From: Sphyrna mokarran | Lineage: Eukaryota | NCBI GenBank assembly: GCA_024679065.1 | Contig: JAGIQG010000009.1 | Span: 91,016,001 to 91,080,000, forward strand | Direction: 5' to 3' | DNA: 64,000 bases | Shown: positions 18,956 through 64,000 of the stretch, in pieces | Numbering within the stretch: the stretch's first letter is position 1 | Layout of the letters: every line of letters begins with the position of its first letter | Notes under the pieces: model-generated | Databases searched by the model: none | The model's input: the letters and a program-made list of their open reading frames with translations, nothing else | Told to the model about the DNA's origin: nothing | Made by a program: the position numbers and the translations under genes

Positions 18956-19027
18956 CAAACACATTTTAACTATAAATTATTCACTGAGATGTGATAATTC
19001 TGGAGAACTTCGACTGAACTATATTTT

Positions 19028-24269: not shown

Positions 24270-24463
24270 TTTGTTCTATCACTGTAACTCCACACATTTG
24301 TCATGGCCAATCAACCTAACCTGCATATCTTCGGATTGCGCAAGGAAATGAAGTACCCAGAGGAAGCCAACTCAGACATTGAGAAAATGTGTAACACAAG
24401 GCCAGAATTGTTCCGGGTTGTAGAGTTGTGAGGCAGCAATGTTAACCACTGTACCACCATGCC
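24270..24463 (-). mobile_element. HE1-type SINE fragment (part of a duplicated block)
   Basis: HE1 head and core on the minus strand; shares non-SINE flank with the 26395-26616 copy. Confidence 0.75.
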
Positions 24464-25643: not shown

Positions 25644-26394
25644 TTAGTATCTTTACATCATGGCTAGGGGTCTTCCACAGTGATCAGTGCTGGGACGTCC
25701 GTTGCTGTAGTATGTTATATAGAAATGATCTGGAGGAAAATGTGGGTGGTTTGATTAGTAAGTTTACAGATGACACGAAAATTGGCAGAGTGTTGATAGT
25801 GCTGAGGATTGTCAGAGGATACAACAGAATATAGATACATTGGAGACCTGAGCACAGAAATAGCAGATGGAGTTTAATCCAGACAAATATGAGGTGGCGA
25901 AACATAAAAGGTAGGAGCAGGAGGAGGTCATTCAGCCCTTCAAGCCTGCTCCACCATTCATCATGAGCATGGCTGATCATCTAACTCAGTAGCCTAATCC
26001 TGCTTCCTCCCCATAATCTCCCCACAATCTTGATTCTGTTAGCCCTAAGTGCTATATCTAGCCACCTCTAGACAGAGTGGATAGTCAGATGCTTTTTCCA
26101 ATGATGGAAGAGTCAATTATAAAGGGTCACAGGGTCAAGGTGAGAGGGGAAAAGTTTAAAAGAGATGTGTGGGCGAAGTTTTTCATGCAGAGAGTGCCTG
26201 GAATGCATTGCCAGACGATGTAACGGAAACAAGTATATTAGCTACAGGCATCTGGATGGGTATATGAATAGGGACAAAATAGAGGGATACAGACCGAGCA
26301 AGGCTTTTTTTTCCCCAGGGAATCAAGATCAGTACAGGCTTGGAAGGCTGAAGGGCCTGTTCCTGTGCTGCACTTTTCTTTGTTCTTTGTCCTA

Positions 26395-26616
26395 TCACTG
26401 TAGTCCCTCACTGTAGTCCCATGCATTGACTATGGCCAATCAACCTAACCTGCACACTTTTGGATTGTGCGAGGAAACAGAAGCACCCAGAGGAAATCCA
26501 CGCAGACATTGAGAGAATGTGTAAACACAGAAAGTCATCCAAGGCTGGAATTGTTCCTTGGGTTGTTGTGCTGTGAGGCAGTAATGCTAACCACTCTGTC
26601 ACCATACCGACCCTCT
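26395..26616 (-). mobile_element. HE1-type SINE
   Basis: Head and core motifs on the minus strand. Confidence 0.8.
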
Positions 26617-26687: not shown

Positions 26688-26922
26688 CAAAGAACAAAGA
26701 ACAATACAGCATGGGAAACAGGCTCTTTGGCCCAACGAGCCCGCGCCACCATTTTAACATTATAAGTGCCCTCCTCTACCTATGACCTTTGTCTACACCT
26801 ACTGGGGAAGATTGAGGGAAGACTTATTTAGGGACAACTTGTTAGGCTGTTACCAATCAGCCTAACAGCATGTTTTTGGGGTGTGGGAGGAAGCCAGAGC
26901 ACCCTGACAAAACCCATGCAAT
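26688..26922 (-). mobile_element. 3' fragment of the SINE-containing CR1 UTR (B-like subfamily)
   Basis: Tail GGCGCGGGCTCGTTGGGCC..CTGTATTGTTCTTTG and TTAGGCTGATTGG, colinear with 45325-45601. Confidence 0.7.
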
Positions 26923-29511: not shown

Positions 29512-31157
29512 AAAGAACAAAGAACAAAAACAGCACGGGAAACAGGCCCAACGAGCCCACACCGCCACCCCGATGTTCCCACTTCTACCCGCAATCCCTG
29601 TTCATGTTTATAGATCTATGGATTAAAAACCAAATTTGAGACAATTTAGGGAGAATTTGTTTTGCCAATTAGCCTTAGAGCACATCTTTGGGATGTGGGA
29701 GGAAACTGGAGCTCCCGGAGAAAACCCACGCAAGCACGGGGAGAATGCGCAAACTTCCACAGACACAGGCCCAAATCCATGTATCTGCACAGCACAGTGA
29801 TAATCACTGAGCTGTCGTGTTGCCCATTAGATGGTCCAGGTCAAACATACACTAACAACGTGAAGCAGTAGGATACTCTCGAAAAAGATCCAAGAGCAGT
29901 CTTCTCACGACCCATCGCATGTATGCCCCTCGTTAGACAACAAGGTGGACCAAAGCACCTGTAGGATAAAAACAAGTACATCAATATCATCATCTATTTA
30001 CACACTTCCCAGGGACTCCCAAGGCTCATGATCCCTATTTTAAATCAGTTTCTATACCCCTCCATTCCCATTCTGTTCATGTGCCCATCTAAGTATTTCT
30101 TAAATAACTCCAGAGTACCTGCCTCCACCACTTTACTTGGCAGTGCATTCCATACCCCACCACCCTCTGTGTGAAAAAACTCCCTCTAGCATCCAAATTA
30201 TACCTTACCCTCCTCACCCTAAGCCCATGACCCCTCGTGCTATTTGAGTCCATCCTAGGAAAAAGCTTAACCCTGTTTACTCTATCTATCCCCTTCAAAA
30301 TCTTGTACGCCTCTATCAGATCTCTTCTAAGTCTACGTATTTCTAAGGAAAACAGTCCCAATTTGCCTAACCTCTCCTCGTAACTCAGACCTTCCATACC
30401 AGGCAGCATCCTGGTAAACCTCCTCTGCACTCTTTCCAGAGTCTCCACGTCCTCTAGTAAGGCGACCAGAAATGGATGCAATATTCCAAATGAGGTCTAA
30501 CCAGCGTTTTATACAACTGCAACATTAAAGGTCAGCTCTTGTACTCTATACCCCTTCCTATAAAGGCTAACATACTATATGCTTTCTTCACAACCTTCTC
30601 CACTTGCTCTGCCACCTTCAGATACTTGTTCACCTGTACCCCCAGGTCCCTCTGCATTTCTATACTCTTAATAGGTCTACCCTTTATCATATACCTCCCC
30701 ACTACATTCTTTCTCCCAAAATGCATCACCTCACATTTATCAGGATTGAATTCCGTCTGCCATATGTCTGCCCAAGCTACCAGCCTATCTATGTCCTGCT
30801 GCATCGCCTGACAATGCTCCTCACTATCTGCAAGTCCAGCCATCTTTGTATCATTGGCAAACTTGCTGATCACTCCACTTACTCCCTCTTCCAAGTCATT
30901 TATATATATTACAAATAGAAGAGGTCCCAGTACCGAGCCCTGCGGCACACCACTAGTGACCGACCTCCAGCTAGAGAAACAGCCTTCCACTATTACTCTC
31001 TGTCTCCTATTACCAAGCCAGTTACTTATTCATCTAGCTACCTGTCCTTGTATCCCATTTGCCTTGACCTTCTCGACTAACCTCCCATGAGGGACTTTGT
31101 CAAACACCTTACTAAAATCCAAATAGACAACATCAACGGCTCGCCCTTTGTCCACTG
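29512..31157 (-). mobile_element. CR1 subfamily A, 5'-truncated, with SINE-containing 3' UTR
   Basis: ORFs 30532-30990 and 30089-30481; UTR colinear with 18440-18955. Confidence 0.95.
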
Positions 31158-33761
31158 GAGTAACATTTTTAAAGTAGCATTTAAACATACATTGCCGTGC
31201 ATCCAATGTACAGAATTCACTGGCCTTTGGGTGCAGTGCGATAATGGCAGCAATACTACTCACTCCACTGTCAGAGACCTGCTGTGATGGTCACACCGGG
31301 GAACTCAGAGGCCACTGAAACCCCCAAATAGTTAGGGGCATGATCAGATGGTGCCCATTGAGCAACGTCCACTAGGTGGAGCCCACCTGGCAATGGTAGC
31401 AGTGTCTGGCAGTGGCCACTGGGTGGCCGTTTATTTATTTATTAGTGTCACAAGTAGGTTAACATTAACACTGCAATGAAGTTACTATGAAAATCCCCCA
31501 GTTGCCACACTCAGAGTCTGAATGAGTACATTGAGGGAAAATTTAACATGGTCAATTCATCTAACCAGCCTGCCTTTTGTACTGTGGGAGGAAACCAGAA
31601 CATTCAGAGGAAACCCACACAGAGGCAGGGAGAACATACAGACTCTGCACAGTGACTCATGCTGGGAATTGAACACAGGTATTTGAGCTGGGAAGCAGCA
31701 GTTCTAACCACTGTGCTGTGTGTCAGGTGGAGCTATCAAGGGCACCTCCGGCGATGGGTACTAACAGACACCGCCTGGCCACATGGGTCAATCCACAGCA
31801 CATGGACTGCAGCGATTTAAGAAAGTGGCTCACCTCCAGCTTCTCAAGGATGGGCTATAAATGCTGGCTTAGCCAGCGATGCCCACGTCCCATGAATGAA
31901 TAAAAAAACTGTCTGGGCTTTAATGGCCCGAGCCACCCCAATGCCTAGTGTTGATGTGAAACTTACAGTTCTCCAAAAAAGTGCCTGAGTGTGGGAGGAT
32001 TATAATGCGGAGCACGGTTGAGAGACACAAGCCATGATCTTACGAAAAATATTCTAAGTGCCAAAAGAGCGAGAAAACAGGTGAGTATCAGATCTGTTTT
32101 TTGGCTGAACTGGAAAGTGCAATCTTATGTTGCTGTCACTTTTCTAGACAGGAGTGCGATTCTCACCAGTGGCTGCGAGGAGCTTAAGCTTGCTGGATCT
32201 AGACTGATTGGGGCGTAATTGTGCAGGCACCTTGTTCTTCCTGTGAACTGGGAGACCTCTTTGTAATTCCCCAAACAGCACTTTAGCCCCTGGACAGCTC
32301 CACCACCCCCCACCCCCCAACCCATAGACATTCCCTCTCCATTATCGGTGACATTGTAACCTCCCTCACCCACATGGCAACATGGGTCGTTGGCACTGGG
32401 ACCCTCCTGATGAGTCCTCCATCAAGACTCCTCTCTGCCGCTTTCCCAGTATGTGCCCCACTTAGGCCCCATTTCTTGTCACCACCATGGTGCAGTTGTG
32501 GTGCCCAGTGGGCAGTTCTAAGGTGGCCAGTGGGCACTGCTAAACTGATACTGCTCCATTGACAGTGTCTGGCCAAGCCTTGAATCATTTGTGGGCTTCA
32601 ATGGCTTCTGATCCCATCGGTGAGGCCATCATATCTGGTCTGTACTGATGAAAAGCTTATCGCAAGAGGGTAAGTTCAAGTGAGCCCATGAAAAACGTCA
32701 TTAATATTTAAATCAGCTTTGCAGTTAAAACAGTGCTTGTATAATTCTAGGAGGTTGAAATCTACACGCAAACCAGATTTTTGGCCTCTCATGTAATCTT
32801 ACTGGTCGGGGCAAGCCATTAAGGTTGCGCCTTTACAAATATTTTGGGAGAATTCTGCCCCATATCTCAAGTGTGGATTCAGTAATACATAATTAGATCT
32901 CCCTGCAGGATCCATTTTGTAGTAACAGATTCTTCTTTTTTTTGGTTAACTCATAATGGCATCCATTAATGTAAAACTGAGCAAATGTTTGGTGTTGAAG
33001 GAAGTTTATAAGCTTATGAACAAGGAGATGGAATGGGCGATTCAGTCCCTTGAGCCTACCTAGCATTTAATATCAAGCTGATCTGATTGTCACCTCGCAT
33101 CTGCATCCCACCTCTCCTTGATAACCCCATCACATCCTTGCTTAACAAGAATCTTTTCATCTTCGTCCCAAAGACTCACGAAACTGAGAGAAAAAATTCA
33201 TCTCAGTTCCATTTTAAATGGGAGACCATTACTTTTAAACAGTTTTCCTCTGGTTCTAGATTCTTCAACAAGAGGAAGCATTCTTTCCACATCCACTCTC
33301 TGAGAAGACCCCTAAGGGAAACTTATGTGTTTCAATCAGATCACCTCATATTCTTCTAAATTTTAAATTAAAGAATTTATTTTCAGTGAATAACTCCATT
33401 CTGTGGAAAAAGGTTTCTTTTCAGAACCTGTCTTTTATGTCCCAATCTTGATGATCTAGAAGAGAAGGGAATATACCTGTTATATATTTGGATAGATGTT
33501 GTGTTGCTGTGCTGCCACCTTAAAAATCTAGCCATGGGTGTAATTTGTGATGTTAACGGCTGTTTTCCGGACTTTGAGCCAGGCTAGATCAAGCCTCCAT
33601 ACAGTGAACCTCAATATACCTGCCTTGTTGACTGCAATCAAGCATGTACTCCACTTTCTTTTATCCTCACAATTACAAGATATACAAGAAGATAAAAACA
33701 AAATTGGTGATGAGGAGCAGTTTAAAAATTTTCTTCTAACAAAAAGAAGAAAAGAAAAATC

Positions 33762-34846
33762 AGAAGAAAGCATATGGTATGTTAGCCTTTATAGGAAGGG
33801 GTATAGAGTACAAGAGCTGGCCTTTAATGTTGCAGTTGTATAAAACATTGGTTAGACCTCATTTGGAATACTGCATCCAGTTCTGGTCACCTTACTACTG
33901 GAAAGACGTGGAGACTCTGGAGAGAGTGCAGAGGAGATTTACTAGGATGCTGCCTGGTGTGGAAGGTCTGAGTTACGAGGAGAGGTTAGGCAGATTGGAG
34001 CTGTTTTCTTTAGAAAGACGTAGACTTGGAGGCGATCTAATAGAGGTGTACAAGATTATGAGGGGTATAGATAGAATAAACAGGGTTAAGCTTTTTCCTA
34101 GGATGGACTCAAATAGCATGAGGGGTCACGGGCTTAGGGTGAGGGGGGGTGGTAAGGTATAATTTGGATGCTAGAGGGAGTTTTTTCACACAGAGGGTGT
34201 GGGGGTATGGAATGCACTGCCAAGTAAAGTGGTGGAGGCAGGCACTCTGGAGTTATTTAAGAGATACTTAGATGGGCACATGAACAGAATGGGAATAGAG
34301 GGATATAGAAAACTGATTTAAAACAGGGATCATGAGCCTTGGGACTCCCTGGGAACTATGTAAATAGTCAATGATATTGATGTATTTGTTTTTATCCCAC
34401 AAGTACTTTGGTCCGCCTTGTTGTCTAACAAGGGGCATACACACGATGGGTCATGAGAGGGCTGCTCTTGGATTTTTTTTACGAGAGTATCCTAGTGCTT
34501 CACGTCGTTAGTGTATGCTTTACCTGGACCATTTGATGGGCAACACGACAGCTCAGTGACTATCGCTGTGCTGTGCAGACAAATGGATTTGGGCCTGTGT
34601 CTGCGCATTCTCTCTGTGCTTGCGTGGGTTTTTTCCGGGTGCTCCGGTTTCCTCCCACATCCCAAAGATGTGCTGTTAGGCTGATTGGTAAAAGAAATTC
34701 TCCCTAAATTGTTTCAAATTTGGTTTCAATCCATAGATCTATAAACATAGACAGGGATCACGGTAGAAGTGGGAACATTGAGGTGGCGGCGCGGGCTCAT
34801 TGGGCCAAAAGGCCTGTTTCCTGTGCTGTTTTGTTCTTTGTTCTTT
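33762..34846 (+). mobile_element. CR1 subfamily A 3' fragment with SINE-containing 3' UTR
   Basis: ORF 33779-34162; UTR colinear with the other A copies. Confidence 0.95.
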
Positions 34847-34894: not shown

Positions 34895-35246
34895 AGAATT
34901 CGCAGCAGGTAAATGCATCTAACATTGGACCAGTAAGGTAGTGGAGCATAAAGAAAGGTTTCTACCAAAAAGCAAAATACGAGCAATCTGAGGAGGTCAG
35001 GATTCAGAGCTTGCAAAGTGCATAGTTTAAGTAAAGCATGGAGGTACAGTGAAAAACAAATATTATAAAAGCAGAATTAGCAGCAGGTAAGTGATTGCGT
35101 CTGACATTGGACCAGTAAGGTAGTGGAGCATAAAGAAAGGTCCCTACCAAAAAGCAAAATATGAGCAATCTGAGGAGGTCAGGATGTGGAGCTTGTAAAA
35201 TGCATAGTTTAAATAAAGCATGGAAGTAGAGTGAAAAACAGATATT
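34895..35246. repeat. Two-unit ~178-bp tandem duplication in the Gypsy leader
   Basis: ACATTGGACCAGTAAGGTAGTGGAGCATAAAGAAAGGT occurs at 34922 and 35104 with colinear flanks. Confidence 0.9.
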
Positions 35247-36395
35247 CCTGGAATTGCATTAAAATCTAGAGCTAGCTGTTGAAAAATAAAACTAGGCTAT
35301 TTATTATCAAGACAAGCTCCTGGAAAACATTGCTGCCTGAATCTTAGTAAACCAGTAAGAATGGCAGGAAAGTTTGGTGCCAATAACTCATTCAAGGAAG
35401 AATCTAAGAATTGGAGATCTTATGTAGAAAGATTTCAATGCTATATATTGGCAAATAAGATTCCAGAGTGTAGAAAAGCTTTCAATTTATTCCAAAGTCT
35501 GGTCCAGCTTGAGAAACCAGGTAGCAACATGTATTAAGAAGTAACTAAGATACTGCAGGACTATTATTCACCTGAACTATTAACTACGGCATAAATGAAT
35601 TCAGCTAGAAGGAGAGAAGATATCTCAATTTGCAGCAATCCTAAAATGCCTTGCTGTGCAATTCGCAAGACTTTGTGCACATCTTTCAGATGCAAGAGTA
35701 CTGAGTGTAATAGGAACCTGCAGCACTAACAAGATCTGAGATCAGTGCTGAGACCCAGGTATCTGAGTCATGCTGCAAATTGGATATTGGAAACCCTGCT
35801 GAGCAACAGTCACCCACCCTCCTCCAAACCCCTCACACTTGTAGAGTTGCCACCGACCCAAAAAACATAATGGAGCCATGAAAGGACACATGGAGCCATC
35901 AGACGCTAGGCACTTACCTCCTCACCAACCCTCACTCTTGAAGTGTCTGAATTGGACTTTTATGGAGTTTTTGGACTTTTATTGTTTCATGCCAATTCCA
36001 GATTGGTGAACACATAGTAAAGGAAAGCATGCAGATAAAAGTTGGGTGTGCAGCCCATTAAGCAGATTGCAATGCATGCAAATATGTTAAAATGGCCATC
36101 GTGCCCATTTTTGGAGGATTCACAAAAGGCCATTTTTGAACCTTGGTAAACCAAGCTAAGGTGGCCACGAATTGCGCTACTCACCTCACATCCGACTTTA
36201 GCAAGCTTTCGTGCCTGGAAACAGGAGCAACATGATGGCAACATTGCCCCCAGTTTCTCAATATCCACTTACCAAAAGCTTTCATTTTTAAAGATGTGAA
36301 GCAGTATTAGGATTACGAGGGGAGGGAGGGGGAGAAGGCCTGGGTAAGATACTCTATCTGAGAGTCGATGCAGACTCAACGGAACAAATGGCCTC

Positions 36396-37843
36396 AAAGA
36401 ACAAAAAACAAAGAACAAAACAGCATGGGAAACAGGCCCTTCAGCCCAATGAGTCCGCGCCGCCACCCTGATGTTCCCACTTCTACCCATGATTCCTGTC
36501 TATGTTTATAGATCTATGGATTAAAAACCAAATTTGAGACAATTTAGGGAGAATTTCTTTTGCCAATTAGCCTAAGAGCACATCTTTGGGATGTGGGAGG
36601 AAACTGGAGCGCCCGGAGAAAACCCACCAGGTAGCAACATGTATTAAGAAGTAACTAAGATACTGCAGGACTATTATTCACCTGAACTATTAACTACGGC
36701 ATAAATGAATTCAGCTAGAAGGAGAGAAGATATCTCAATTTGCAGCAATCCTAAAATGCCTTGCTGTGCAATTCGCAAGACTTTGTGCACATCTTTCAGA
36801 TGCAAGAGTACTGAGTGTAATAGGAACCTGCAGCACTAACAAGATCTGAGATCAGTGCTGAGACCCAGGTATCTGAGTCATGCTGCAAATTGGATATTGG
36901 AAACCCTGCTGAGCAACAGTCACCCACCCTCCTCCAAACCCCTCACACTTGTAGAGTTGCCACCGACCCAAAAAACATAATGGAGCCATGAAAGGACACA
37001 TGGAGCCATCAGACGCTAGGCACTTACCTCCTCACCAACCCTCACTCTTGAAGTGTCTGAATTGGACTTTTATGGAGTTTTTGGACTTTTATTGTTTCAT
37101 GCCAATTCCAGATTGGTGAACACATAGTAAAAAAAAACGGGGAGAATGCGCAAACTCCCACATACACAGGCCCAAATCCATGTATCTGCACAGCACAGCG
37201 ATAGTCACTGAGCTGTCGTGTTGCCCATCAAATGGTCCAGGTCAAGCATACACTAACAATGTGAAGCACTAGGATACTCTCAAAAAAGATCCAAGAGCAG
37301 TCCTCTCACAACCCATCACGTGTATGCCCCTCATTAGACAACAAGGTGGACCAAAGCACCTGTAGGATAAAAACAAGTACATCAATATCATCTATTTACA
37401 CACTTCCCAGGGACTCCAAAGGCTCATGATCCCTATTTTAAATCAGTTTTCTATACCCCTCCATTACCATTCTGTTCATGTGCCCATCTAAGTATTTCTT
37501 AAATAACTCCAGAGTACCTGCCTCCACCACTTTACTTGGCAGCGCATTCCATACCCCACCACCCTCTGTGTGAAAAAACTCCCTCTAGCATCCAAATTAT
37601 ACCTTACCCCCTCACCCTAAGCCCGTGACCCCTCGTGCTATTTGAGTCCATCCTAGGAAAAAGCTTAACCCTGTTTACTCTATCTATCCCCTTCATAATC
37701 TTGTACACCTCTATCAGATCTCCTCTAAGTCTACGTCTTTCTAAGAAAAACAGTCCCAATTTGCCTAATTTCTCCTCGTAACTCAGACCTTCCATACCAT
37801 GCATCATCCTGGTAAACCTCCTCTGCACTCTCTCCAGGGTCTC
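36396..37843 (-). mobile_element. CR1 subfamily A 3' fragment; UTR interrupted by a 506-bp duplication
   Basis: ORF 37604-37828; UTR pieces 36396-36627 and 37138-37440. Confidence 0.93.
36626..37131 (+). repeat. Apparently identical direct copy of 35516-36021
   Basis: No mismatch seen by eye; offset 1110 bp; followed by an A-run. Confidence 0.95.
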
Positions 37844-39039
37844 CCCTATGGAAGATCACTGTTCGATCATCCCATGAGTCTTCTTTTTTGGAAGAGTGGT
37901 ACAGCCTGTCAATTCTTTTCTGGTATATGTATAACCCACTGATTTTTGGCTTTATCTTTGTAAATCTTTTCTGCACTGTCTCCAATGCCCAAGTGCCTCT
38001 ATATCCTTTTTAAAATATGGCAACCAGAATTACACACAGAAAGTGTGGTTTGATACTAAGGTTTGATACAACCATGACTGCCCTCCTTTTCAATTTGATA
38101 GAAATATAGCTGAGAACTTTGATTTCTTTTTTATGGTATCCTGTGGCACAACTCTTAATGATAAACATATTTGTGCTCTGTAATACCTCTTTTTACACCC
38201 AATTTAGATAGCTTTCAAGTAAAATGTTACTTCACTACTTCTACTAAAATGCACTATCTCAGTTTATCTGTGCTGAACTCCATTTGCCTATTTATTGATG
38301 CCCTCCAGCAATCCTTAGTATTGAATTACCTCGTCCCACCTCCCTATAAGTTGGTGCCATTTGCAATTTTCAAAATTGTGCTTTAATCCTAATTTCCAAT
38401 CTTTAATGCAAACTATGAATAGCAGCCTGATCATTGTGAAACACCCCTTGAAAAAATTCACTCATGCAGATTTCCTTCCCCAATGGGCAACAGTGAACCA
38501 GATAGGTTTTTACGACAATCAATAATGCTTTTTATGCTCCTTAGGAGATTTTTAATTCTAAATTTATTGAATTCAAATTTCATCATTTACCATGGTGGGA
38601 TTCAAATGCCAGCTTCTAGTTTATTACCCTGGGTTTCTGGATAGCCCAAAAATGATCCACCACCTCCCCTAACATTCTGCCACTAACCAAAGTTAGTTTC
38701 TTTTCTTTCTGTCTTGAAGACAATTAACAATACATTCTACCACTTATTTCCGACTCCACATTCTCTGACTTTATTCATTAATCTATTATGAGGCACTATG
38801 TCAGAGGTCTTTAAAAAATCCAGACAAATTATCTCTACTGCATTATAATTGTTCACTGTTTCCACAATCTCCTTGAAACAATCAACAATGTTACCCAAAC
38901 AAGGTTTTCCCATTGGACATTTATGCTAACTATTCATTGTTATATTTCCCATTTCTCGAAGTTCTTCTTTTCCCTCCTTTAGTAAGAATTCCCAAATTTT
39001 TCCTACTATTATCATTAACAAGGTTTGAATGGGAAGAAT

Positions 39040-44559: not shown

Positions 44560-45601
44560 GGTCACAAGTCCTTGAAGATGGCAGCACAGGTGGAGAAGGT
44601 GGTGAAGAAGGCATATTGTATGCTTGCCTTTATAGGAAGGGGTATAGAGTATAAAAACTGGCGTCTAATGTTGCAGTTGTATAGAACGTTGGTTAAACGT
44701 TTGGAGTACTGCATCCAGTTCTGGTTGCTGCACTACTGGAAGGATGTGAAGGCCTTGGAGAGAGAGTGCAGAGGAGGTTTACCAGAATGCTGACTGGTAT
44801 GGAAATCTTAGCTATGAGGAGAGATTGGGCAAATTGGTGTTGTTCTCCCTGGAAGATGGAGAATGAGGGGAGACCTAATAGAGGTGTATAAGATTATGAA
44901 GGGTACAGATAGAGAGAACAGTAGGAAGCTTTTTCCCAGGTTGGATGCGAAAATCACAAGGGGTCATGGGCTTAAGACGAGAGGGCGAGGTATAATTCAG
45001 GTATTAGAGGGAGGTTTTTCACACAGAGGGTTGTGGGGGCCTGGAATGCACTGCCAAGTAGGGTGATAGAGGCAGGCACACTAGAGTTGTTTAAGGCTTA
45101 CCTAGATAGGCATACACGGGGTGGGTCACACGAGGGCTGCTCTTGGATGTTGCTTCGAGAGTTGCCTAATGCTTCACGTCATTAATGTACACTTAAACTG
45201 GACCGATTGACGGGCAACATGATAGCTCAGTGACTATCACTGTTTGCTGTGCAGTTACAGGGACCCGGGTCGGATGTCTGACTTGGGTTGGTGTCTGTGG
45301 GAATTTGCACATTCTCCCCGTGCTTGCATGGGTTTTCTCCAGGTGCTCTGGTTTCTTCCCACACCCCAAAAACGTGCTTTTAGGCTGACTGGTGTTAATA
45401 AATTGTCCCTAAATTGGATCTTCTTTAATCTGGTGCACATATAATTCTCTAAATTTGCATCCCTTTATTGTGCAGTCTATGAGATGTAGACAAAAGTCAT
45501 AGGTAGAAAAAGGATTGGAATGAGGCACTCACTGAGTGTTAAAATGGGCGGCACAGGCTTGTAGGGCTGAAGGGCCTGTTTCCTGTGCTGTGTTGTTCTT
45601 T
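44560..45601 (+). mobile_element. CR1 subfamily B 3' fragment; UTR retains a more SINE-like head
   Basis: ORFs 44509-44793 and 44863-45066; UTR with CAGGGACCCGGGTCGGATG at 45258-45276. Confidence 0.9.
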
Positions 45602-47398
45602 GTCACACCAGGCTGACAAATCAAGTACTCAGGGTTAAGCTAAAAAGAACATTTATTGGGAATTACAAATCCATATAGAAGATTAATAAACAATTAACAA
45701 ACAACACAATATTAAACTTACATCAAATTTTGAATTAACCAAAATAACAAATGTAAGGTGAACACATCCCACTGTTAATACATCAAGGAGTGATGGGTTG
45801 AAAGGAACTCAGGTCTGTACAGACTCACCCTGAATCCCTCACCATACGCAGAATAGTTGTCCTCTCAGAAGGGAGACTGCAAACATGGTATTAGTCAAAC
45901 ACTTGACACCTGAAGAGGATCTGTGTACATCCACATCTTCAGAGTCTGATTCTACACCATACCTACTCCCGAGAACTAGTTTAGTTACACACATACACTC
46001 AAATTAGGGGAAACATTCTCAGAATACTAGACTGAAATTTCCTTAGAATCGCTGTGTTCTAGTCTGGCTTCCAATTCCATTGGTCACACATGACACTACT
46101 TACACATAATGGAGCTTGTTTCCATCATACAAATGGTTAGATCCTAAGTGGTCACATAGCTCCACGGACCAGTTTCCATTCCTGAAAGACAGTTTTCCCC
46201 AGGTGAGTTGGACAAAATTTTCTAATTCCTAGCTCTCTTTCCTTTGACCCTCCATTTACCAAAATGCTTTGTAGTCATCAATCTGGTTTAACCATTCCCT
46301 CATCTCCATCTTCTATACACTTGTTCCCAAAATTAACATTTACTCTTGTTCTTTTCTGGTCAATCTCCCTGCTGTTCTAGTCCAAGGGATGAACATTTGG
46401 GCGTATCAGGTATACGTGCTGTTTAGGTAGCCAATGCAGATTTGACAGAGCCACATCAAGGACTAATGGTCCTGTTTTCCTGTCAAAACTGCTATTACTC
46501 CATAATGTTGCATAACCTTTCTTTTCAGATAACAATCAGATAATAGTTTCCTTTTGATGCATCGAATAAATCTGCCTCCACCACAGTCTCACAAACTGCA
46601 TTCTGGATCCAATGTGTGAAAAGGATCTAATCTATTCAGATCCCTCATGGTTTTGAAGACCACAATCTCCTTATCTTCTTTTAGGAAATCTCTCTGGGAG
46701 GCATGTGATTCCCTCTATCAGATTTGTAGTTCATTTCTGTAAGAGGTTAGTGATCCTATCAATAAACTATTTGGGTGCGCAGGATATATACAGCACAGAA
46801 TCAGGCCATTCAGCCCAGATAGTGCAATTTGGTTTTTATGCTGCTGTTGAGCCTGTTGACAATTTTTTAAATTTAAATCCTTGTATTCCTCACTCCCTGT
46901 CATGGATTTGCCTAGTGACAGCAGGACTCAGAATTAATAAAAGGAATGATAGAATGTAATCTACTCAGCAACATGGAAGAATATGCCTGGCAACAGCAGT
47001 TACCAACATTCAAAGGGGATGATAAGATGCATCCTGCGATGAGATTAACAGACATCAAATAAGATCAGATGTAAAAAGCCCTATCATCAGAATCAGATAA
47101 TTAAGATGATTAATAAATCAGTGGAGGCATACAAATGCAAATTTTCAAGAGTCAAGGAATGAGAGAGACAGACTGTCAATATACAGAAGGCAGAAGCAGA
47201 GAGGCCCGTTTATCATCCATCAGCAAGCCAGTCAACAGCAGAGGCCACTTTTTAAAGTCTTACAGCCAAGCTATTGCAGAAATTTTTGTAAAGGCAGTTT
47301 AACTATTGTCACATGGTCAGGCAAAGATGCTTCCCTGACAGGATCATTGTCCTGGTAATGTGTCGTAACTGTAACTGGGTTTTACTCATAGACTTATT

Positions 47399-49240: not shown

Positions 49241-49845
49241 TCCTACAGCTTATTCTCACAGATAGTTTCACATGGCTCCTCACACCATTTCAGAGCAAAA
49301 ATATACACCCATCATGAACTAGTGTCTCACATTGAAATGTTTTGCAAATAACATCAGCATGGCTTATAACACTGTCTCAGATGATTGTCTAGCTTCTCCT
49401 TAAATATATCTATACTAATCATTTCAATCACTCTCTGTAATAGCAAGTTCCACATTCCCTTCATTCTGAGGTACTTGCCTCTTGTCCAGAACAAGAAAAA
49501 CCTTGAAACATTTTCTTCTGAATCACCTACTTCCTGTTGCTGAGGAAATCTGCCCAAAGATATAGTGAAAGACTCTCCTAATATCTCCTTCTATACCTTG
49601 AGTGTCATTTTTTTCTGTGATTTTCTCTGATTATGTTTGTACAAAAAACCTTGAGACATTTGAGTATATTAATGTATAAATGCAAGTTGTTGTTGTTGAA
49701 GGGTTGATTCCTCATTACCACCTCAGTCCCTGCAATCCACAAAGTACTAACCTGGAGTAATTGGCCTCTAGTGCTCTGTTCCAGTGTAGACCCATACAGT
49801 GAAAGTTGTGAGACAATGAAGAGTATCGAAGTCAAGATAAATTCT

Positions 49846-50115
49846 GGGTAGCATGGTGGCACAGTGGTTAGGACTGCTGTCTCACAGCACCAGAGACCCC
49901 CAGATTTGATTCCTGGCTTGGGTGACTGTCTGTGTAACTCTGCACATTTTCTCTGTGCCTTGGTGGGTTTCCTCAAGGTGCTCCAGTTTCCTCCCACATT
50001 CCGAAAGATGTGTTTGTTAGGTGCATTGGACATACTAAATTCTCCTTTGGCGTACCCAGTCAGGCACCAGAGTGTGGAGACTAAGGGATTTTCACACTAA
50101 CTCACGTGAATAAAT
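49846..50115 (+). mobile_element. HE1-related SINE
   Basis: GGGTAGCATGGTGGCACAGTGG head and core. Confidence 0.8.
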
Positions 50116-51719: not shown

Positions 51720-52736
51720 TTACTCCTGGTGGATACTTTGATGTAACAAATGTTTTGATGGTCTTGAGAAGGATGTATTGCATTCCTCACACGTGAACGG
51801 TTTCTCTTCTGTGTGAATGCGTTGATGCTTACGGAGGTTTGATGAGTCCGAGAATGATTTGTCACACACGTCACATGTGAATGGTTTCTCCCCTGTGTGA
51901 ATGCGTCGGTGTACAACAAGGGTCGATGACCGTGAGAACAACTTATCACACACATCACACATAAATGGGTTCTCCCCAGTATGAATGCGTTGGTGTTCAA
52001 GGAGGGTTGATGATCGCAAAAACGATTTGTTGCACACCCCACACATGAATGGCTTCTCCCCAGTGTGAATGCGTTGGTGTTGGAGGAGTGCCGAAGATCG
52101 TGTGAATGACTTGTTGCACACTTCACACTTGAATGGCTTCTCCCCAGTATGAATGCGCTGGTGTTCAAGGAGAGTCCATGACTGTGAAAATGACTTTTTG
52201 CACACCTCACATTTGAATGGCTTCTCCCCGGTATGAATGTGTTGGTGAGTCACGAGTGTTGCTAACATCGCGAAGGCTTGGTCACACACCTCACATTTGA
52301 ATGGTTTCTTCCCAGTATGAAGGTATTGGTGTTTGCGGAGATTTGATGGATATGAGAATGATGCATTGCAGACTTCACATATGTATGGTTTCTTCCCAGT
52401 GTGAATGCGTTGGTGTGCATGGAGATTTGATGACTGAGAGAATGATTTGCTGCATACATTGCAAATGAATGGTTTCTCCCCTGTATGAATGCGTTGGTGT
52501 ACACGGAGGGTCGATAACTGTGCAAATGATTTATTACACACCTGGCACATGAAGGATTTCTCCCCTGTGTGAATCTTCTGATGTGACAGGAGATGGGAGG
52601 ATTGGGTGAAAAACATTTCACAAATTTCACACCTGAAGGGTTTTTCTCCTGTGTGAATTCGCTGATGTATCAGAAGTCTTGTGGATGTCATAAAGGTTTT
52701 ATTGCAAATCTCACAGTTGAATGGTTTCACTTCCAT
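51720..52736 (-). CDS. Tandem C2H2 (Kruppel-type) zinc-finger protein, 12 fingers, 338 aa
   Basis: 12 CxxC..HxxxH units with TGEKP linkers, uninterrupted; probable exon acceptor CCTGTTTTACAG at 53183-53184. Confidence 0.93.
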
Positions 52737-56120: not shown

Positions 56121-57087
56121 AACATAAAGCATAAAACATAGGACACTATAGCACAAACAGGCCCTTCGGCCTACAAGTTGCGCCGATCATATCCCTACTT
56201 ACCATGCCTATCTATAACCCTCAATCCCATTAAATCCCACGTACTCATCCAGAAGTCTCTTAAAAGAGTTCGCCTCCACCACCACCGACAGCAGCCAATT
56301 CCACTCACTCACCATACTCTGAGTGAAAAACTTACTCCTGAAATCTCTTCTGTACCTACTCCCCAGCATCTTAAACCTGTGTCCTCTCGTAGCGACCGTT
56401 TCATCCCTGGGAAATAGCTTCCGAGAATCCACCCTATCTATACCTCTCAACATCTTATAAACCTCTATCAGGTCGCCTCACATCGTTCATCTCTCCAGGG
56501 AGCAAAGACCTAGCTCCCTCAACCTATCCTCACAAAGCATGCCACCCAATCCAGGTAACATTCTTGTAAATCCCTCGATTAATGAAGGCTTGTACATCAT
56601 CCACCTTCTTGACCACATCCTCCACCTGCGAGGCACATTTAAGAGTCCTATGGACCCAGACCCCAAGGTCCTTCTGATCCTCTACACTGCTAAGAGTCCT
56701 ACCCTTGATATTATACTCCTTCATGGTATGGAAGGTCTGAGTTACAAGGAGAGGTTAGGCAAATTGGGACTGTTTTCCTTAGAAAGGCGTAGACTTAGAG
56801 GAGATCTGATAGAGGTGTACAAGATTATGAGGGGTATAGATAGAGTAAACAGGGTTAAGCTTTTTCCTAGGATGGACTCAAATAGCATGAGGGGTCACGG
56901 GCTTAGGATGAGGGAGGTAAGGTATAATTTGGATGCTAAAGAGAGTTTTTTCACACAGAGGGTGGTGGGGGTATGGAATGCACTGCCAAGTAAAGTGGTG
57001 GAGGCAGGCACTCTGGAGTTATTTAAGAAATACTTAGATGGGCACATGGGCACAAAGTCTTTTACTTTAGTTCTTAGAGTGTTTATT

Positions 57088-57277
57088 TCGGCGCTCCGTA
57101 GCGGGAGATAGGCGCGGGGGGCTGCAGGGAAGGAAGCGCGGGAGTATATAAGGAAGGCCAAGGTAGACAGCGGGCAGCATCGGGAGCGGGCAGTGGAGTG
57201 AGACGGGAATTAGAGTGAGAGCAATAAGGGCTTAAGCTCACTGGGCTTGGGCGAGCGCAGGCTTGGACGCGGTGAGT
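57088..57277 (+). promoter_or_regulatory. CpG-rich 5' UTR with TATA box and splice donor
   Basis: TATATAAG at 57145-57152, GGAAG motifs upstream, GCG|GTGAGT at 57272-57277. Confidence 0.55.
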
Positions 57278-57334
57278 AACTTGATTCCTATCTAACCTTT
57301 AGATAACCCAACACCTTTAAAGGGGGTGTACAAA

Positions 57335-58240
57335 ATGCCAGGCTACTTGGCCAAACGCGTCCACTGTGTACGCTGCCATATGTGGACCTTCTTGGAGGCA
57401 CCACGTCTCCCGAAGGCCCACATATGCGCAAAATGTTTAGAATTGCATCGTTTAAGAGCTAGGGTGAGGAAGCTGGAGCTGCGCTTGGAGGACATGTGTC
57501 TAGTGAGGGAAAACGAAGTTATAATGAATAGGGAAGGTAGTCCTGTGGGGACCCCAGGATCTAGTAGCAGGGACGGGCTGGTTACAGATACAAGGAAAAA
57601 GAATAAAAATCAAGGCACAAAGGCCATCTCAAAGGAGGATTCCCAGAAAACCAAGGGAGGGGTAAAAGCTGTGATGGAGAAGGCAAGTGAAGGGGAACAG
57701 AATGCCGCAGAGAACAGCAGGAAAGCAGGAAGAGAGATACTGGTGGGGGATGGGATGGTTAAAGGGATCGATAGGCGTTTCTGTGGGCAAAAGAGAGACT
57801 CCAGGATGGTAGTCTGCCTCCCTGGAGCAGGGGTCCATGATGTTTCAGAGAGGGTAGAGGGAATTTTGAAGGGAGAAGGGTCTAAGGCAAATGTAATAGT
57901 TCACGTAGGACAGAAAGATGTAGGAAGAAAGCGCAGGGGGGACATACGTAGGCAGTTTAGGGAGTTGGGGGCTCAGCTGAAAGGTAGGGCCTCCAGGGTG
58001 GCGTTCTCTGGGCTGCTGCCTGTGCCCAGCACCGATAGGGTAAAAACTAATGAGACACTACAACTAAATGCATGGATGAGGGATTGGTGTAGGTTAGAAG
58101 GCTTCATATTCATTGATCATTGGGAAGTCTTCAGGAGGGAGGGTCATCTATTCAAGAAGGATAGGGAGCAGTTGTCTGGGAGGGGAACCCATATTTTAGC
58201 TGGGAGGTTAGCTGGAGTGTTTCAGAAGTGTTTAAACTAA
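57335..58240 (+). CDS. CR1 ORF1p: CxxC-CxxC zinc finger, coiled coil, SGNH esterase-like domain
   Basis: CVRC..CAKC, LRARVRKLELRLEDM, LVGDG, CLPGA, VHVG and FSGLLPVP..LNAWMRDWC..GFIFIDHW. Confidence 0.93.
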   Translation: MPGYLAKRVHCVRCHMWTFLEAPRLPKAHICAKCLELHRLRARVRKLELRLEDMCLVRENEVIMNREGSPVGTPGSSSRDGLVTDTRKKNKNQGTKAISKEDSQKTKGGVKAVMEKASEGEQNAAENSRKAGREILVGDGMVKGIDRRFCGQKRDSRMVVCLPGAGVHDVSERVEGILKGEGSKANVIVHVGQKDVGRKRRGDIRRQFRELGAQLKGRASRVAFSGLLPVPSTDRVKTNETLQLNAWMRDWCRLEGFIFIDHWEVFRREGHLFKKDREQLSGRGTHILAGRLAGVFQKCLN

Positions 58241-58258
58241 TAGGGAGGGAGGGTGGGG
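58231..58258 (+). promoter_or_regulatory. Candidate -1 ribosomal frameshift signal (T TTA AAC, 5-nt spacer, G-quadruplex motif)
   Basis: In-frame X XXY YYZ heptamer immediately before the ORF1 TAA; ORF2 is in the -1 frame; GGGAGGGAGGGTGGGG at 58243-58258. Confidence 0.65.
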
Positions 58259-61133
58259 AGAGAGAGGGAACTGGGAGTGGGAGAGAGAGGGGTGATAGGG
58301 TAACACCAGAAGGTAGAAAGGAATATCCGAGAGCTGAGGGTCTTCAGTGCATGTGTTTTAATGCGAGGAGTGTGACTGGCAAAACAGATGAACTGAAGGC
58401 AATAATGTTCACGAGGAGTTTAGAAGTGGTGGCGGTGACTGAGTCGTGGTTGAAGGAGGGGCAAGGCTGGCAATTGAATATTCCAGGATATAAGTGTTTT
58501 AGGCATGACAGAGTTGGTGTGAGGAGAGGCGGGGGAGTGGCTTTATTAGTTAAGGACAACATCATAGCAGTGCAGAGGGAGGGAGGTACGGATGATTTAG
58601 GAATTGAGTCTCTATGGGTGGAGTTGAGGAATAGGAAGGGAGTGGTTACTACGTTGGGTGTTTACTACAGACCGCCCAACAGCCCGCGGGCCGTGGAAGA
58701 AGGGATATGCAGGGACATTTTAGATAAGTGTAGGAAAAATAGGGTAGTAGTAATGGGAGATTTCAATTTCCCTGGAGTAGATTGGAGAGTGCCCAGAGCG
58801 GTAGGAGTGGACGGGGAGGAATTTGTACATTGTGTTTTGGAAGGGTCCTTAGACCAGTATGTGGATGGCCCGACTAGAGAGGGGGCTATACTGGATTTGG
58901 TTCTGGGGAATGAGCCAGGGCAGGTGGTTGACGTCGAGGTAGGAGAGCACGTGTCAAATAGTGATCACAACTCTGTCTGCTTTAGGATATTAATGGAAAA
59001 GGACGAGACCTGCCCAAAAGCAAAGGTATTTAACTGGGGGAGGGCTAGATACAGCCAGATTAGGCAAGATCTTAAAGATACCGACTGGGATAAGCTTTTT
59101 GAGGGCTGGTCGACGAGGTACATGTGGGAGTCTTTCAAGGGAAAACTAAATTCTCTGCAGGAAAGATACGTGCCGGCAAGGAGGAAGGATGGGAAAGGTA
59201 GGATTAGAGAACCGTGGCTTACCAGGGATATTGAGGACTTGATCAGGAAGAAGCGAGAGGCGTACATTAGATCTAGGCAACTGGGGACTGAGACAGCGCT
59301 GGAAGCTTATAGAAAGTGTAGACGGGATCTTAAAAGGGGTGTTAGAAAGGCAAAAAGGGGCCACGAAGTGGCTCTGGCAGGTAAGATTAAGGAAAATCCT
59401 AAGGCATTTTACACCTATGTAAGGAGCAAAAGGATGGTTAGAGGCAAGATTGGACCTCTCAGGGACAGAGGATGGGATCTATGCTTAGAGCCTGAGGGAA
59501 TGGGGGAGATCCTGAATGAATACTTTGCGTCGGTATTCACGCAGGAGACTGGCCAGATGTCTGTTGCTGATTTTGACAAAGTTGAGGATCCGTTGAGGGA
59601 AATAAAGATTACAAGGAAAGAGGTGTTGGGGCTGTTAGACAGCTTAAAGACATATAAAGCTCCAGGGCCTGATGGCATTTACCCCAGGCTGCTAAGGGAG
59701 TTGAGGGAAGACCTAGCTGGGCCTCTGACGCAAATCTTTGTCTCTTCCTTGGACACAGTGAGGTCCCAGAGGACTGGAGGATAGCAAATGTAGTACCGTT
59801 GTTTAAAAAAGGTCAGAGGGATAACCCAGGGAACTATAGGCCGGTGAGCTTGACTTCAGTTATGGGTAAGCTAATGGAGAGGATCCGTAGGGACAGGATG
59901 TATGAGCATCTGGAGCGCTGCGATCTGATCAGGGATACGCAGCATGGCTTCGTCAAGGGGAAGTCCTGTCTTACAAATCTAGTGGAATTTTTTGAAGAAG
60001 TGACAAAAACAGTCGATGAAGGACATGCTGTTGATGTCGCCTACATGGATTTCAGTAAGGCGTTTGACAAGGTTCCTCATGGTAGACTGATAGAGAAGGT
60101 GAAGGCGCATGGGATACAGGACCAGGTATGTAGATGGGTCGAGAACTGGCTCGGGAGGAGGAGACGGAGGGTAGTAGTGGAAGGCTCTTTTTCCGACTGG
60201 AGGCCTGTCACTAGTGGAGTGCCACAAGGCTCAGTACTAGGTCCTCTTCTATTTGTGGTCTACATAAACGACTTGGAAGTTGGGATAGGTGGTGAGATCA
60301 GCAAATTTGCTGATGACACCAAGATGCTTGGATTGGCGGGTACAGAGGAGCAGTGCCAGGCAATACAACAGGGATAGACAGGTTGGTAGACTGGGCAGAT
60401 AGATGGCAAATGGAATTTAATCTGGATAAATGCGAGGTGATGCATTTTGGCTGGAAAAATGTAGAAGAGAGTTATAGGATAAAAGGTAAAACTATTCGGA
60501 GTATAGAGACGCAGAGAGACTGGGGGGTGCAGGTTCACAAGTCTCTGAAGGTGTCTTCACAGGTGGAGAAGGTGATAAAGAAAGCTTATAGTATGTTAGC
60601 TTTCATTGAAAAGGGTATAGAATACAAGAGTAGGAGTTTGATGTTGCAATTGTATAGAACGTTGGTTAGGCCTCCCTTGGAATACTGCGTCCAGTTCTGG
60701 TCGCCGTACTATCGGAAGGATGTGGAGTCCTTGGAGACAGTGCAGAGGAGGTTTACCAGGATGCTGCCTGGTATGGAAGGACTGTCTTATGAGGAACGAT
60801 TAAATAGACTGGGGTTGTTTTCCCTTGAAAGACGTCGGCTTAGAGGGGATCTCATAGAGGTGTATAAGATTATAAGGGTATAGATAGAGTAAATGGAGGT
60901 AAACTTTTTCCACCTTCAGAAATGGATAGGACGAGGGGTCATGGCCATAGGGTGAGGGGGGGGCTATGTATAAGACGAATATTAGAGGGCAGTTTTTCAC
61001 ACAAAGGGTAGTGGGGGTGTGGAATGCACTGCCGAGTAAGGTGGTGGGAGCAGGCACACTAGGGCTGTTTAAGGGTCTCTTGGACAGCCACATGAGCGGT
61101 ATGCAGATAGAGGAATATAGTAGGACTGTTTAA
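58231..61133 (+). CDS. CR1 ORF2p (APE endonuclease plus RT), broken by four small indels
   Basis: FNARS, VTESW, YYRPP, MGDFN, SDH, YRPVSLTS, DFSKAFD and FADD; indels at about 59758, 60372, 60877 and 60956-60963; stop at 61131-61133. Confidence 0.92.
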
Positions 61134-64000
61134 CCATGACTTTTTTTTCCACAGGTAATTCGGTCCAACTTGACCAACAAGGAGCATGCATTCGGCAGGT
61201 GGTGCGAGGACAGCTCTTGGATGTTGATTCATGGGTTGCCTGGTGCTTCATGTCGTAAATGAGGGCTTTATCTGGACCATCTGAAGGGCACCATGACAGC
61301 TCAGTGACTATCGCTGTAGCTGTGCAGACACTTGGAATTGGGCCGGTGTCTGCGGGAGTTTGCGCGGGTTTTCTCCGGGCGCTCCGGTTTCCTGCCACAT
61401 CCCAAAAATTCGCTCTTAGGCTGATTGGGAAACAAATTGTCCCTATATTGAGATTCTTCCATATTAGGAATAACCTAAAATTAGAATAGGAAAATGGAAT
61501 TGTTACTATAAAGTTATGACGGCGGCGCGGGCTCGTTGGGCCGAAGGGCCTGTCTCCCGTGCTGTGTTGCTCTAAAAAAAAATGAACAGAATGGGAATGG
61601 AGGGGTATAGAAAACTGATTTAAAATAGGGATCATGAGCCTTGGGAGTCCCTGGGAAGTGTGTAACTAGATGATGATATTGATGTACTTGTTTTCATCCT
61701 ACAGGTGCTTTGGTCCACCTTGTTGTCTAACGAGGGGCATACACGCGATGGGTCATGAGAGGGCTGCTCTTGGATTTTTTTTTGAGAGTATCCTTGTGCC
61801 TCATGTCGTTAGTGTATGCTTGACCTGGACCATTTGATGGGCAACATGACAGCTCAGTGACTATCGCTGTGCTGTGCAGATACATGGATTTGGGCCTGTG
61901 TCTGTGGGAGTTTGCGCATTCTCCCCATGCTTGCGTGGGTTTTCTCCGGGCGCTCTGGTATCCTCCCACATCCCAAAGATGTGCTCTTAGGCTAATTGGC
62001 AAAACAAATTCTCCCTAAATTGTCTCAAATTTGGTTTTTAATCCATAGATCTATAAACATGGACAGGAGTCGCGGGTAGAGGTGGGAACATTGGGGTGGC
62101 GGCGCAGGCTCGTTGGGCCGAAGGGCCTGTTTCCCGTGCTGTTTTGTTCTTTCTTCATCCCATTGGACCTGCCAAAATGGACCACTACATATTTATTTGC
62201 ATTGAAGTCCATCTGCCACTTTTCCGCCCAGTCTTCCATCCTATCTATGTCTCGCTGCAATTTCTGACATTGTTCCAGACTATCCACAACACCACCAACC
62301 TTTGTGTCGTCAGCAAACTTACCAACCCATCTCTCCATTTCTTCATCCAGGTCATTTATGAAAATGACAAATAGTGAGGGTGCTAGAACAGATCCCTGGG
62401 GCACTCCGCTGGTGACTGACCTCCATGCAGAAAAAGACCCATACACAATCACTCTCTGCCTTCTGCAGGCAAGCCAGCTCTGGATCCACAAGGCCAAAGC
62501 CCCGTGGATCCCATGCCCTCTCACTTTTTCAAGAAGTCTTGCATGGGAGACCTTATCAAATGCCTCGAAGTCCATATAAACCACATCCACCGCTCTTCCT
62601 TTGTCAATGTGTTTAGTCACATTTTCAAAGAACTCAACTAGGCTCGTAAGGAATGACCTACCCTTGACACATCCATGCTGACTGACGTGATCATACTAAA
62701 CTTCTCTAAATGTTCATAAATCCTGTCCCTCAGTATCCTCTCCATCAAGTTATCAACCACTGATGTCAGAATCACCAGTCGGTAATTTCCTGGGCTATCC
62801 CTGTTCCCTTTCTTGAAAATAGGAACCATATCTGCAATCCTCCAATACTCTAGAATCTCTCCTGTCTCCACAGATGATGCAAAGATCATCACCAAAGGCT
62901 CTGCAATCTCTTCCCTCACCTCTCACAGTAACCTGTGGTGCATCCCATCCGGTCCCGGCGACTTATCTATCTCGATGCAAATTAAAAGTTCCAACACATC
63001 CTCTTTCTTAACGTCTACATACTCAATCTTTTCAGTCCGCCATAAACCTGCAGTAGAAACTCCCAGATCATTTTCCACCATGAATATCAAGGCAAAGTAT
63101 TCATTAAGCACCTCTGCCATTTCTTCCGGTTCTGCACAGACTTTTCTCCCTTCACCTTTTATAGGTCCTATTCCTTCACATCTCATCCTTTTACTCTTCA
63201 CATATTTGTAGAACGCGTTGGGGTTCTCCTTAATTTTACCCACCAAGGCCTTCTCATTAACCTTTCTGGCTCTCCTAATTTCCTTTTTAAGATCCTTCAT
63301 ACCGTATATTCCTCTAGATCCTTAACATCTTCTAGCTCTCTGAACCTTCTGTACACCTTTCCTTTCTTTCTGACTAGGTTCATCACAACCTTCGTGCACC
63401 ACGGTTCCCATGACCTACCAACACCTCCCTGTCTCATTGGAATGTCGTCGTGCAGAGCTCCAGACAAACATTCCTTGAAAATCCATCACGTTCCTTCAGT
63501 ACTTTTCCCCAAGAACACCTCCTTCCAATTTCCTCATCTAATTATCTGCCTGGTGGCTTCATATTTCCCCTTACTCCAGATAAACGCCTTCCTAGACTGT
63601 CTGATCCTATCCCTTTTCAATGCTATCGTGAAGGAGATAGAATTTTGATCGCTATCCCCTCAGAGAGATCTGACACCTGTCCAGGTTCGTTAGTCAGAAC
63701 TAGATCAAGTACAGCCTCTCCTCTTGTAGGCTTATCCATGTACTGTGTCAGGAAACCCTCCCTTCTCATCCAAACCCCTTATCCTAAGGATATTCCAGTC
63801 AATGTTTGGGAAATTAAAGTCTCCCATCACGACAGCTCTGTTATTACTACATCTCTTCGGGATCTGTTTCCCTATCTGTACCTCAACTTCCCTGTCACTA
63901 GTGGATGGTCTATAGAAAACACCCAGCAAAGTTACCAACCCCTTGCTGTTCCTAACCTCCACCCACAGAGACTCCGTAGACAGTCCCTCCATGGTGTCCA

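Follow-up and report, generated by a model that had tools for sequence, protein, structure and literature searches.

How does an autonomous retrotransposon come to carry part of a second retrotransposon in its own transcript, and does the acquired part serve its new host? The question is raised by a 64,000-nt stretch of DNA from the shark Sphyrna mokarran (the window, to which counts of copies, trees and splice-site ranks refer unless stated otherwise), in which a family of CR1 long interspersed nuclear elements (LINEs) holds a piece of a V-SINE, a short interspersed nuclear element (SINE) with a V domain, within its 3′ untranslated region (UTR). We consider it probable, at roughly 0.6, that a block of about 400 nt was inserted inside the UTR of a CR1 that kept its own 3′ tail, and that this block serves the LINE RNA as a structured element in cis, a reading that draws on sequence comparison and computed folding.

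One family with one SINE junction

The seven intervals singled out in a preliminary description of the window match one another by BLASTN and form one family. Five copies are of type A (84-94% mutual identity, each about 3-9% from the majority sequence of the type), and types B and C, with one copy each, are 70-77% identical to A. In six of the seven copies, the UTR lies directly 3′ of the end of open reading frame 2 (ORF2) of a CR1; the seventh, 61625-62152, belongs to an A copy that the insertion of copy C has split: it is the 3′ half, and the ORF2 end of that copy is at 56724-57051. The SINE-bearing UTR measures 450-530 nt, and in copy B, a deletion between short shared motifs has joined ORF2 to the UTR, so that the proximal UTR is absent. 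The SINE begins at the same base after the same flank in 7/7 copies, and the 5′-truncated copies have differing 5′ breakpoints and a common 3′ end. With the junction identical throughout, the earlier claim that it is part of the element and not the outcome of independent insertions stands. Target-site duplications of the truncated copies were looked for and not found.

Copy C is a full-length element, and the halves of the A copy that hosts it (to 57051; from 61582) rejoin around it without loss of sequence. Since this complete element lies nested in another family member, the SINE piece must move together with the ORFs; the nested copy and the truncated copies with their common 3′ end show that the block is copied along with the LINE. 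At the 5′ junction of copy C, a short tandem duplication (57040-57056) leaves the target-site duplication ambiguous (0-3 nt).

The proteins of copy C are of CR1 type. ORF1 matches Pfam OSK (E 3e-7, above the cut-off) and Lipase_GDSL_2 (E 1e-5, below it); its 37 homologues carry PF13472/PF17182, and the 11 named ones are all from sharks and rays. ORF2 matches PF03372, PF14529 and PF00078. The family thus has the traits of the CR1 clade, namely an endonuclease-reverse transcriptase ORF2, an esterase-type ORF1, a 3′ stem-loop with a simple terminal repeat, and 5′ truncation. As a separate observation, annotated Mobula protein isoforms (TMEM204 and ABHD14A-like; P0034-P0037) include a piece resembling CR1 ORF1, which suggests either CR1 exonisation or annotation noise.

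Three trees of the 3′ end of ORF2 (13-15 rows, window copies only, no outside reference, midpoint root) place the seven SINE-bearing rows on one side of a branch, with support of 91/97, 88/99 and 81/94, and the presence of the SINE requires one change on them. Placing the three types on a reverse transcriptase tree had been proposed earlier as a check for a single capture; the trees of the window copies are compatible with one capture event, short of proof. On these trees, A, B and C either show no clear order or B is joined with C at 81/95, and the series B, A, C that had been read from the sequences is therefore not upheld.

Content of the block

Profiles built from free SINE copies of the window, in 5-copy and 11-copy versions, match 6/6 UTRs tested and one extra fragment, on the same strand and at E 1e-34 to 4e-12. 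With the 5-copy profile, the match begins at profile position 1-2 in 6/6 UTRs. Strong likeness ends near SINE position 205, short of the tail, and weak likeness to the 5-copy profile continues to the tail in 5/6 UTRs. The earlier statement that the distal UTR follows the SINE therefore applies to the V-SINE head and V domain and, as far as strong likeness goes, not to the tail. The SINE profile gave nothing below E 0.08 against 81 loci from outside the window, of which 80 are distant CR1-type loci and one is a chance viral match.

The captured part consists of a tRNA-related head followed directly by a V domain, the arrangement that defines V-SINEs, and its V-domain motifs, compared by eye, correspond to those of published V-SINE and MER6 consensus sequences (PMC6887750). 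The intact A and B boxes of a working V-SINE are missing. Judged by the usual box consensus sequences, the A box is altered in 7/7 copies and the B box is deleted in six and damaged in one, copy B (45258-45276); in A and C, one common 18-nt deletion removed it. An ARAGORN scan returned nothing. The RNA polymerase III (Pol III) promoter is, as read from these altered, damaged or deleted boxes, disabled in the captured SINE. In this respect, the preliminary description was accurate, both on the damaged B box that B keeps and A and C have lost and on the silencing of the promoter.

Captured heads fold into two hairpins, with z of -2.6 to -3.4 in 5/6 copies, whereas free SINE heads fold at -1.25 to +0.46 (4/4); the whole UTR reached -4.4 and -3.1 in the two copies folded. 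The captured head is 0.62-0.71 and the V domain 0.71-0.81 identical to three free SINE copies of the window, and the donor may therefore be an unsampled subfamily with another tail. The free copies, named HE1 in the preliminary description, are putative HE1 elements, and the captured part can be assigned to the V-SINEs. Some HE1 copies of rays end in a LINE-like tail. Four free V-SINE copies of the window (49845-50105, 31425-31722, 26405-26613 and 24280-24468) have 3′ parts unlike the main free type and make up at least two further subfamilies with other tails.

Between the acceptor-like CAG and the SINE head lies a three-way junction of about 120 nt with a long hairpin, whose arms measure about 36-38 nt around a small loop. 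Its fold has z of -2.8 to -4.4 in 6/7 copies, the seventh being B, which lost the first part. Pairs with changes on both sides number 4/41 in six copies, and 6-7/500 shuffles reach the observed values, in a control that ignores relatedness. Among the sequences compared, the hairpin is present in the seven LINE copies only. It matches no Rfam family, and for want of such a match a resemblance to Y RNA was discounted. The 80 CR1-type loci from metagenomes (37-57% identity) contain neither SINE nor hairpin, and motif scans gave one chance match in viral contigs and none in metagenome or prokaryote collections. This junction, the acceptor-like motif and the refolded head are missing from the preliminary description.

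Origin of the 3′ tail

In 7/7 copies, plain CR1 tails give the terminal stem-loop a higher score than do four free-SINE tails. The free SINE tails form a branch of their own (95/93), and the end repeat of the family matches plain CR1 copies, not free SINEs. Forcing the free SINE tails together with the family costs 12.8 log units, and the approximately unbiased (AU) test, on 62 columns, gives p 0.08 and no rejection. A plain CR1 3′ end (26068-26385) resembles the empty site: its left half aligns to the post-stop stretch of C (0/300 shuffles; 17/300 for the left side of A), and its right half, including the end repeat, aligns to the B, C and A tails (0/300 shuffles each). The simplest reading of these alignments is that a block of about 400 nt was placed inside a normal CR1 UTR and that the LINE tail was kept. 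In 2/4 A copies, the UTR has a 10-12 nt repeat at its two ends, which was examined as a duplication around the block and lies within chance (3/30 and 5/30 simulations).

Conservation of head and V domain

Constraint on the block was gauged by comparing C with the longest A copy, with the four-fold sites of ORF2 as the yardstick. Identity is 48/86 at four-fold sites and 552/652 at first and second codon positions. Within the UTR, it is 66/95 (0.69) in the hairpin, 51/59 (0.86) in the head, 88/100 (0.88) in the V domain, 41/68 (0.60) in the spacer and 34/37 (0.92) in the tail. Head and V together (139/159) exceed the four-fold sites (Fisher p 8e-8), and the spacer shows no excess (p 0.6). Across A, B and C, invariant columns number 125/155 in head and V, 296/416 in ORF2 and 16/63 in the spacer; B-C and B-A identities of head and V are 0.80-0.86. 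The earlier view that the V-domain core was kept is borne out by these counts. Constraint is a likelier cause of the identity of head and V than recombination between subfamilies, on the comparisons at hand.

Weighing the explanations

Under the favoured reading, the block would have entered the short 3′ UTR of one ancestral, active CR1, immediately 3′ of a U-rich tract. The block comprises the three-way-junction hairpin and the first 205 nt or so of a V-SINE. The LINE would have kept its own terminal stem-loop, which its reverse transcriptase needs, and the block has thereby been copied each time the LINE went through target-primed reverse transcription. The internal Pol III promoter, whose decay in the LINE lineage is visible in the boxes, may have been lost because a competing short transcript was avoided. 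The SINE's own 3′ part would have eroded, with head and V domain kept and refolded into stable hairpins, and the block may now contribute to stability, packaging or tail presentation of the LINE RNA.

Several observations weigh against this account. The branch that unites A, B and C never reaches the starred level of the tree tool, and B and C are each known from a single copy. The long hairpin is not clearly above the four-fold sites (p 0.07), and its pair counts rest on six related rows and on a structure derived from those rows. Four-fold identity is higher in other pairs, on few sites (C-B 25/35, A-B 23/31, C-A 22/36 to 24/36; range 0.59-0.74 on 31-46 sites), so that the excess of head and V is small for B. 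A and C share the B-box deletion, yet ORF2 does not pair A with C, and C-only changes are scarcer in head and V than in the hairpin (p 0.04) or ORF2 (p 0.11); a module swap between subfamilies could therefore mimic constraint. The empty-site comparison uses one plain copy, which has no supported sister position on the tree.

A second reading takes the block as a neutral passenger, in which the origin is the same and the block is idle, its identity arising from module swaps by template switching and its folding from ready-made SINE RNA. The deletion common to A and C and the scarcity of C-only changes speak for it, as do the tolerance of proximal UTR loss in the one copy of B and the absence of 19 nt of the V domain from C. 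We nevertheless regard it as unlikely: conserved and diverged modules alternate along the UTR, so that several swaps would be needed, captured heads fold better than free ones, and B also keeps head and V in both of its comparisons. The tail comparison bears on a further alternative, put forward in the preliminary description, in which the LINE lost its own end and took over the body and tail of a SINE, by read-through into a downstream SINE or by template switch. Of this, the body stands; the orientation of the SINE piece, the weak profile likeness up to the tail, the lack of rejection by the AU test and the unlikeness of the captured body to the free SINEs, which leaves room for a donor with another tail, are all in keeping with it. 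Adoption of a SINE tail is nonetheless disfavoured and appears improbable, given stem-loops closer to plain CR1 in every copy, free SINE tails on their own branch, an end repeat common with plain CR1, and halves of a plain UTR on either side of the block. The arm length, small loop and z values of the long hairpin also recall a microRNA precursor carried by the LINE, which is very improbable: Rfam has no match, the base is closed by a junction and not by single-stranded flanks, about 30% of arm sites differ between subfamilies, and cutting would strip the tail from the LINE RNA. As for separate SINE insertions behind separate LINE copies, free SINEs are common enough in the window (11 copies used for the profile), but the same base, flank and derived changes in 7/7 copies and an upstream hairpin confined to those seven refute this idea.

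Splice-site-like motifs

The block starts right after the AG of an acceptor-like site. Scored with an approximate, rounded matrix, this site leads not only in copy C (Table 1) but also in 4/5 A copies, and of the 9038 sites scored across the window, the top eight include four from the family. The top score of all belongs to a plain CR1, whose short UTR has this motif at 26296-26318 (plus strand), and the tract of copy C aligns to plain CR1 at 26270-26340. The site may thus be a wider trait of these LINEs, and, with the same motif on top in a plain UTR, it may be an old U-rich spacer. In the 5′ UTR of copy C, a donor-like site has no ATG 5′ of it, and copy C has no strong acceptor nearer to this donor than the one in the 3′ UTR; with 14 GT at a rate of 62/6943, the chance expectation of such a donor is about 12%, which makes it weak evidence. 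No spliced genomic copy with donor and acceptor joined occurs in the 64-kb window, no reading frame is conserved 3′ of the acceptor-like site, and a protein search with the longest post-acceptor frame gave no match, which is a weak test.

Use of this acceptor would be an addition to the favoured reading. Splicing from the 5′ UTR donor would drop both ORFs and leave a structured, tail-bearing non-coding RNA of about 640 nt, and intronic copies would trap host exons onto a tail that CR1 can copy. The rank of the acceptor, the start of the block right behind its AG, and the lack of an upstream ATG or a nearer strong acceptor favour such use, whereas the plain-CR1 motif, the chance rate of the donor, the approximate scoring and the two negative searches make it doubtful. 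A shade more doubtful is the full proposal that the family makes a second, spliced RNA, as retroviruses do, with both ORFs dropped and a folded non-coding exon derived from a domesticated V-SINE. If it were true, the tail needed by the CR1 enzyme would be present on the spliced RNA and on any host exons that this acceptor traps. Sharks would then have a way of forming retrocopies through a stringent LINE, and the V domain would have a job under transposon-level selection.

Features of the window

The coordinates of the family members and of the parts of copy C are collected in Table 1. Around the copies, a 506-nt stretch occurs twice (35516-36021 and 36626-37131), 100% identical and about 600 nt apart; the second occurrence, followed by a short A run, is the one that interrupts the V domain of an A element, and the duplicate either arose very recently, by local or templated copying, or reflects an error of the assembly. 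Just 3′ of an A copy, a 182-nt unit stands in two head-to-tail copies (34895-35246). Elsewhere, an array of an 84-nt unit (51765-52574; 9.6 copies, 73% matches) lies inside a 350-aa open frame on the minus strand, and its 28-residue period suggests a C2H2 zinc-finger gene.

Table 1. Positions of the CR1 copies, of their parts and of related elements in the window
Feature	Position	Strand	Remarks
A copy, 5′-truncated	14696-18956	+	UTR 18439-18956; interrupted by opposite-strand plain CR1 16059-17946
Plain CR1 3′ end resembling the empty site	26068-26385	+	left half similar to post-stop stretch of C, right half to A/B/C tails
Eighth piece, 5′-truncated, B-like	26689-26921	-	3′ half of V domain, spacer and tail
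A copy, 5′-truncated	29512-31176	-	
A copy, 5′-truncated	33763-34846	+	acceptor CAG changed to CAA
A copy, 5′-truncated	36396-37850	-	V domain interrupted by 506-nt insert
B copy, 5′-truncated	44560-45603	+	damaged B box kept; proximal UTR deleted
A copy hosting copy C, 5′ part (ORF2 end)	56724-57051	+	
Copy C, full-length CR1, nested in an A copy	57052-61581	+	5′ UTR, ORF1, ORF2, SINE-bearing 3′ UTR
TATA-like motif, 5′ UTR of C	57145-57151	+	read from sequence
Splice-donor-like site GCG/GTGAGT, 5′ UTR of C	57269-57277	+	rank 4 of 282 GT in copy C
ORF1 of C, SGNH/GDSL esterase-like	57335-58240	+	N-terminal Cys-pair region
ORF2 of C, endonuclease and reverse transcriptase	58351-61133	+	four frame pieces, three breaks
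Pyrimidine tract and CAG, acceptor-like, C	61141-61154	+	first of 478 AG in C; second of 9038 in window
Three-way junction with long hairpin, C	61162-61278	+	z -2.9
tRNA-derived SINE head, C	61286-61345	+	A box altered, B box deleted, refolded
V domain and following SINE body, C	61346-61446	+	19-nt deletion
CR1-type terminal stem-loop and short A run, C	61521-61581	+	
A copy hosting copy C, 3′ part	61582-62156	+	ORF2 stop 61620-61622; acceptor-like site to 61704
Same 3′ part, block	61582-62156	+	hairpin 61711-61832; SINE part from 61839; tail from 62098

Relation to known elements and significance

The comparisons that follow draw on the available parts of the sources named. Canonical CR1 LINEs of vertebrates have an esterase ORF1 (PMC13343379), and HER1 of elasmobranchs is named in a table of PMC3747384. 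The present family resembles both in its esterase-type ORF1, endonuclease-reverse transcriptase ORF2, 5′-truncated copies and terminal stem-loop with a simple repeat, and differs from them in the length of its UTR (450-530 nt), into which the hairpin and V-SINE block are inserted; HER1 was compared by description only. A tail nearly identical to that of HE1 would mark HER1; in a comparison that covered window sequences, the tail of the family differs from the free SINE tails. As in the V-SINEs HE1, DANA, Ac1 and those of anurans (PMC4824008, PMC6887750), a tRNA-like head precedes the V-domain motifs; unlike them, the captured piece is no independent Pol III unit, its boxes being damaged, its place inside a coding LINE and its own 3′ part lost. 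At GGGTTTTCTCC and GCTCAGTG, it is by eye closer to MER6 or frog V-SINEs than to the free SINEs of the window. MER6/MER6A (PMC6887750) likewise captured and spread a V-SINE segment, but it is a non-autonomous DNA transposon with body and tail and without head, in contrast to head and body without tail in an autonomous LINE here. Chimeric Alu/LINE-1 insertions (bioRxiv 10.1101/2025.02.02.635956) also join SINE and LINE in sense within one insertion; those are 113 separate events of a SINE with a mostly truncated L1, whereas the junction here is a single, fixed one within the UTR of a lineage that propagates. SpIREs of human L1 (PMC5860796) and exon-trapping SVA subfamilies (PMC6139936) are comparable in having splice sites inside non-LTR elements that yield spliced or exon-bearing retrocopies; no donor-to-3′-UTR splice that drops both ORFs is described in the text available for either, and splice use in the present family is a candidate. 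BovB LINEs may carry fused SINE pieces, a parallel that the available part of PMC6036668 does not bear out.

In the literature searched, no CR1 with a V-SINE in its UTR was found described; Repbase, Dfam, subscription papers and the supplements of a 2026 CR1 survey lay beyond that search and may hold the family. CR1 elements, V-SINEs, the capture of a V-SINE by a transposon (MER6) and SINE/LINE chimeras as single insertions are known already. What appears to be new is an autonomous, propagating CR1 lineage whose UTR holds, besides an extra hairpin, a fixed and refolded V-SINE with a dead promoter. In a run index, 20 of 23 rows, from 14 studies, contain part of the A-type stretch 61582-62160: at least half of its words in four rows under three coded organism labels and 0.38-0.47 in 13 more, the three rows with small shares being no evidence. 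This distribution suggests that more than one species has the family.

For annotation, such copies would be masked as a LINE and a separate SINE, inflating SINE counts in sharks. Why the V domain is conserved across animals is treated as an open question in the available part of PMC6887750. In the present family, an autonomous element carries it apart from its Pol III promoter and beside coding sequence that supplies a built-in neutral yardstick. With the V domain more conserved than synonymous sites between two subfamilies, its role becomes open to test by deletion.
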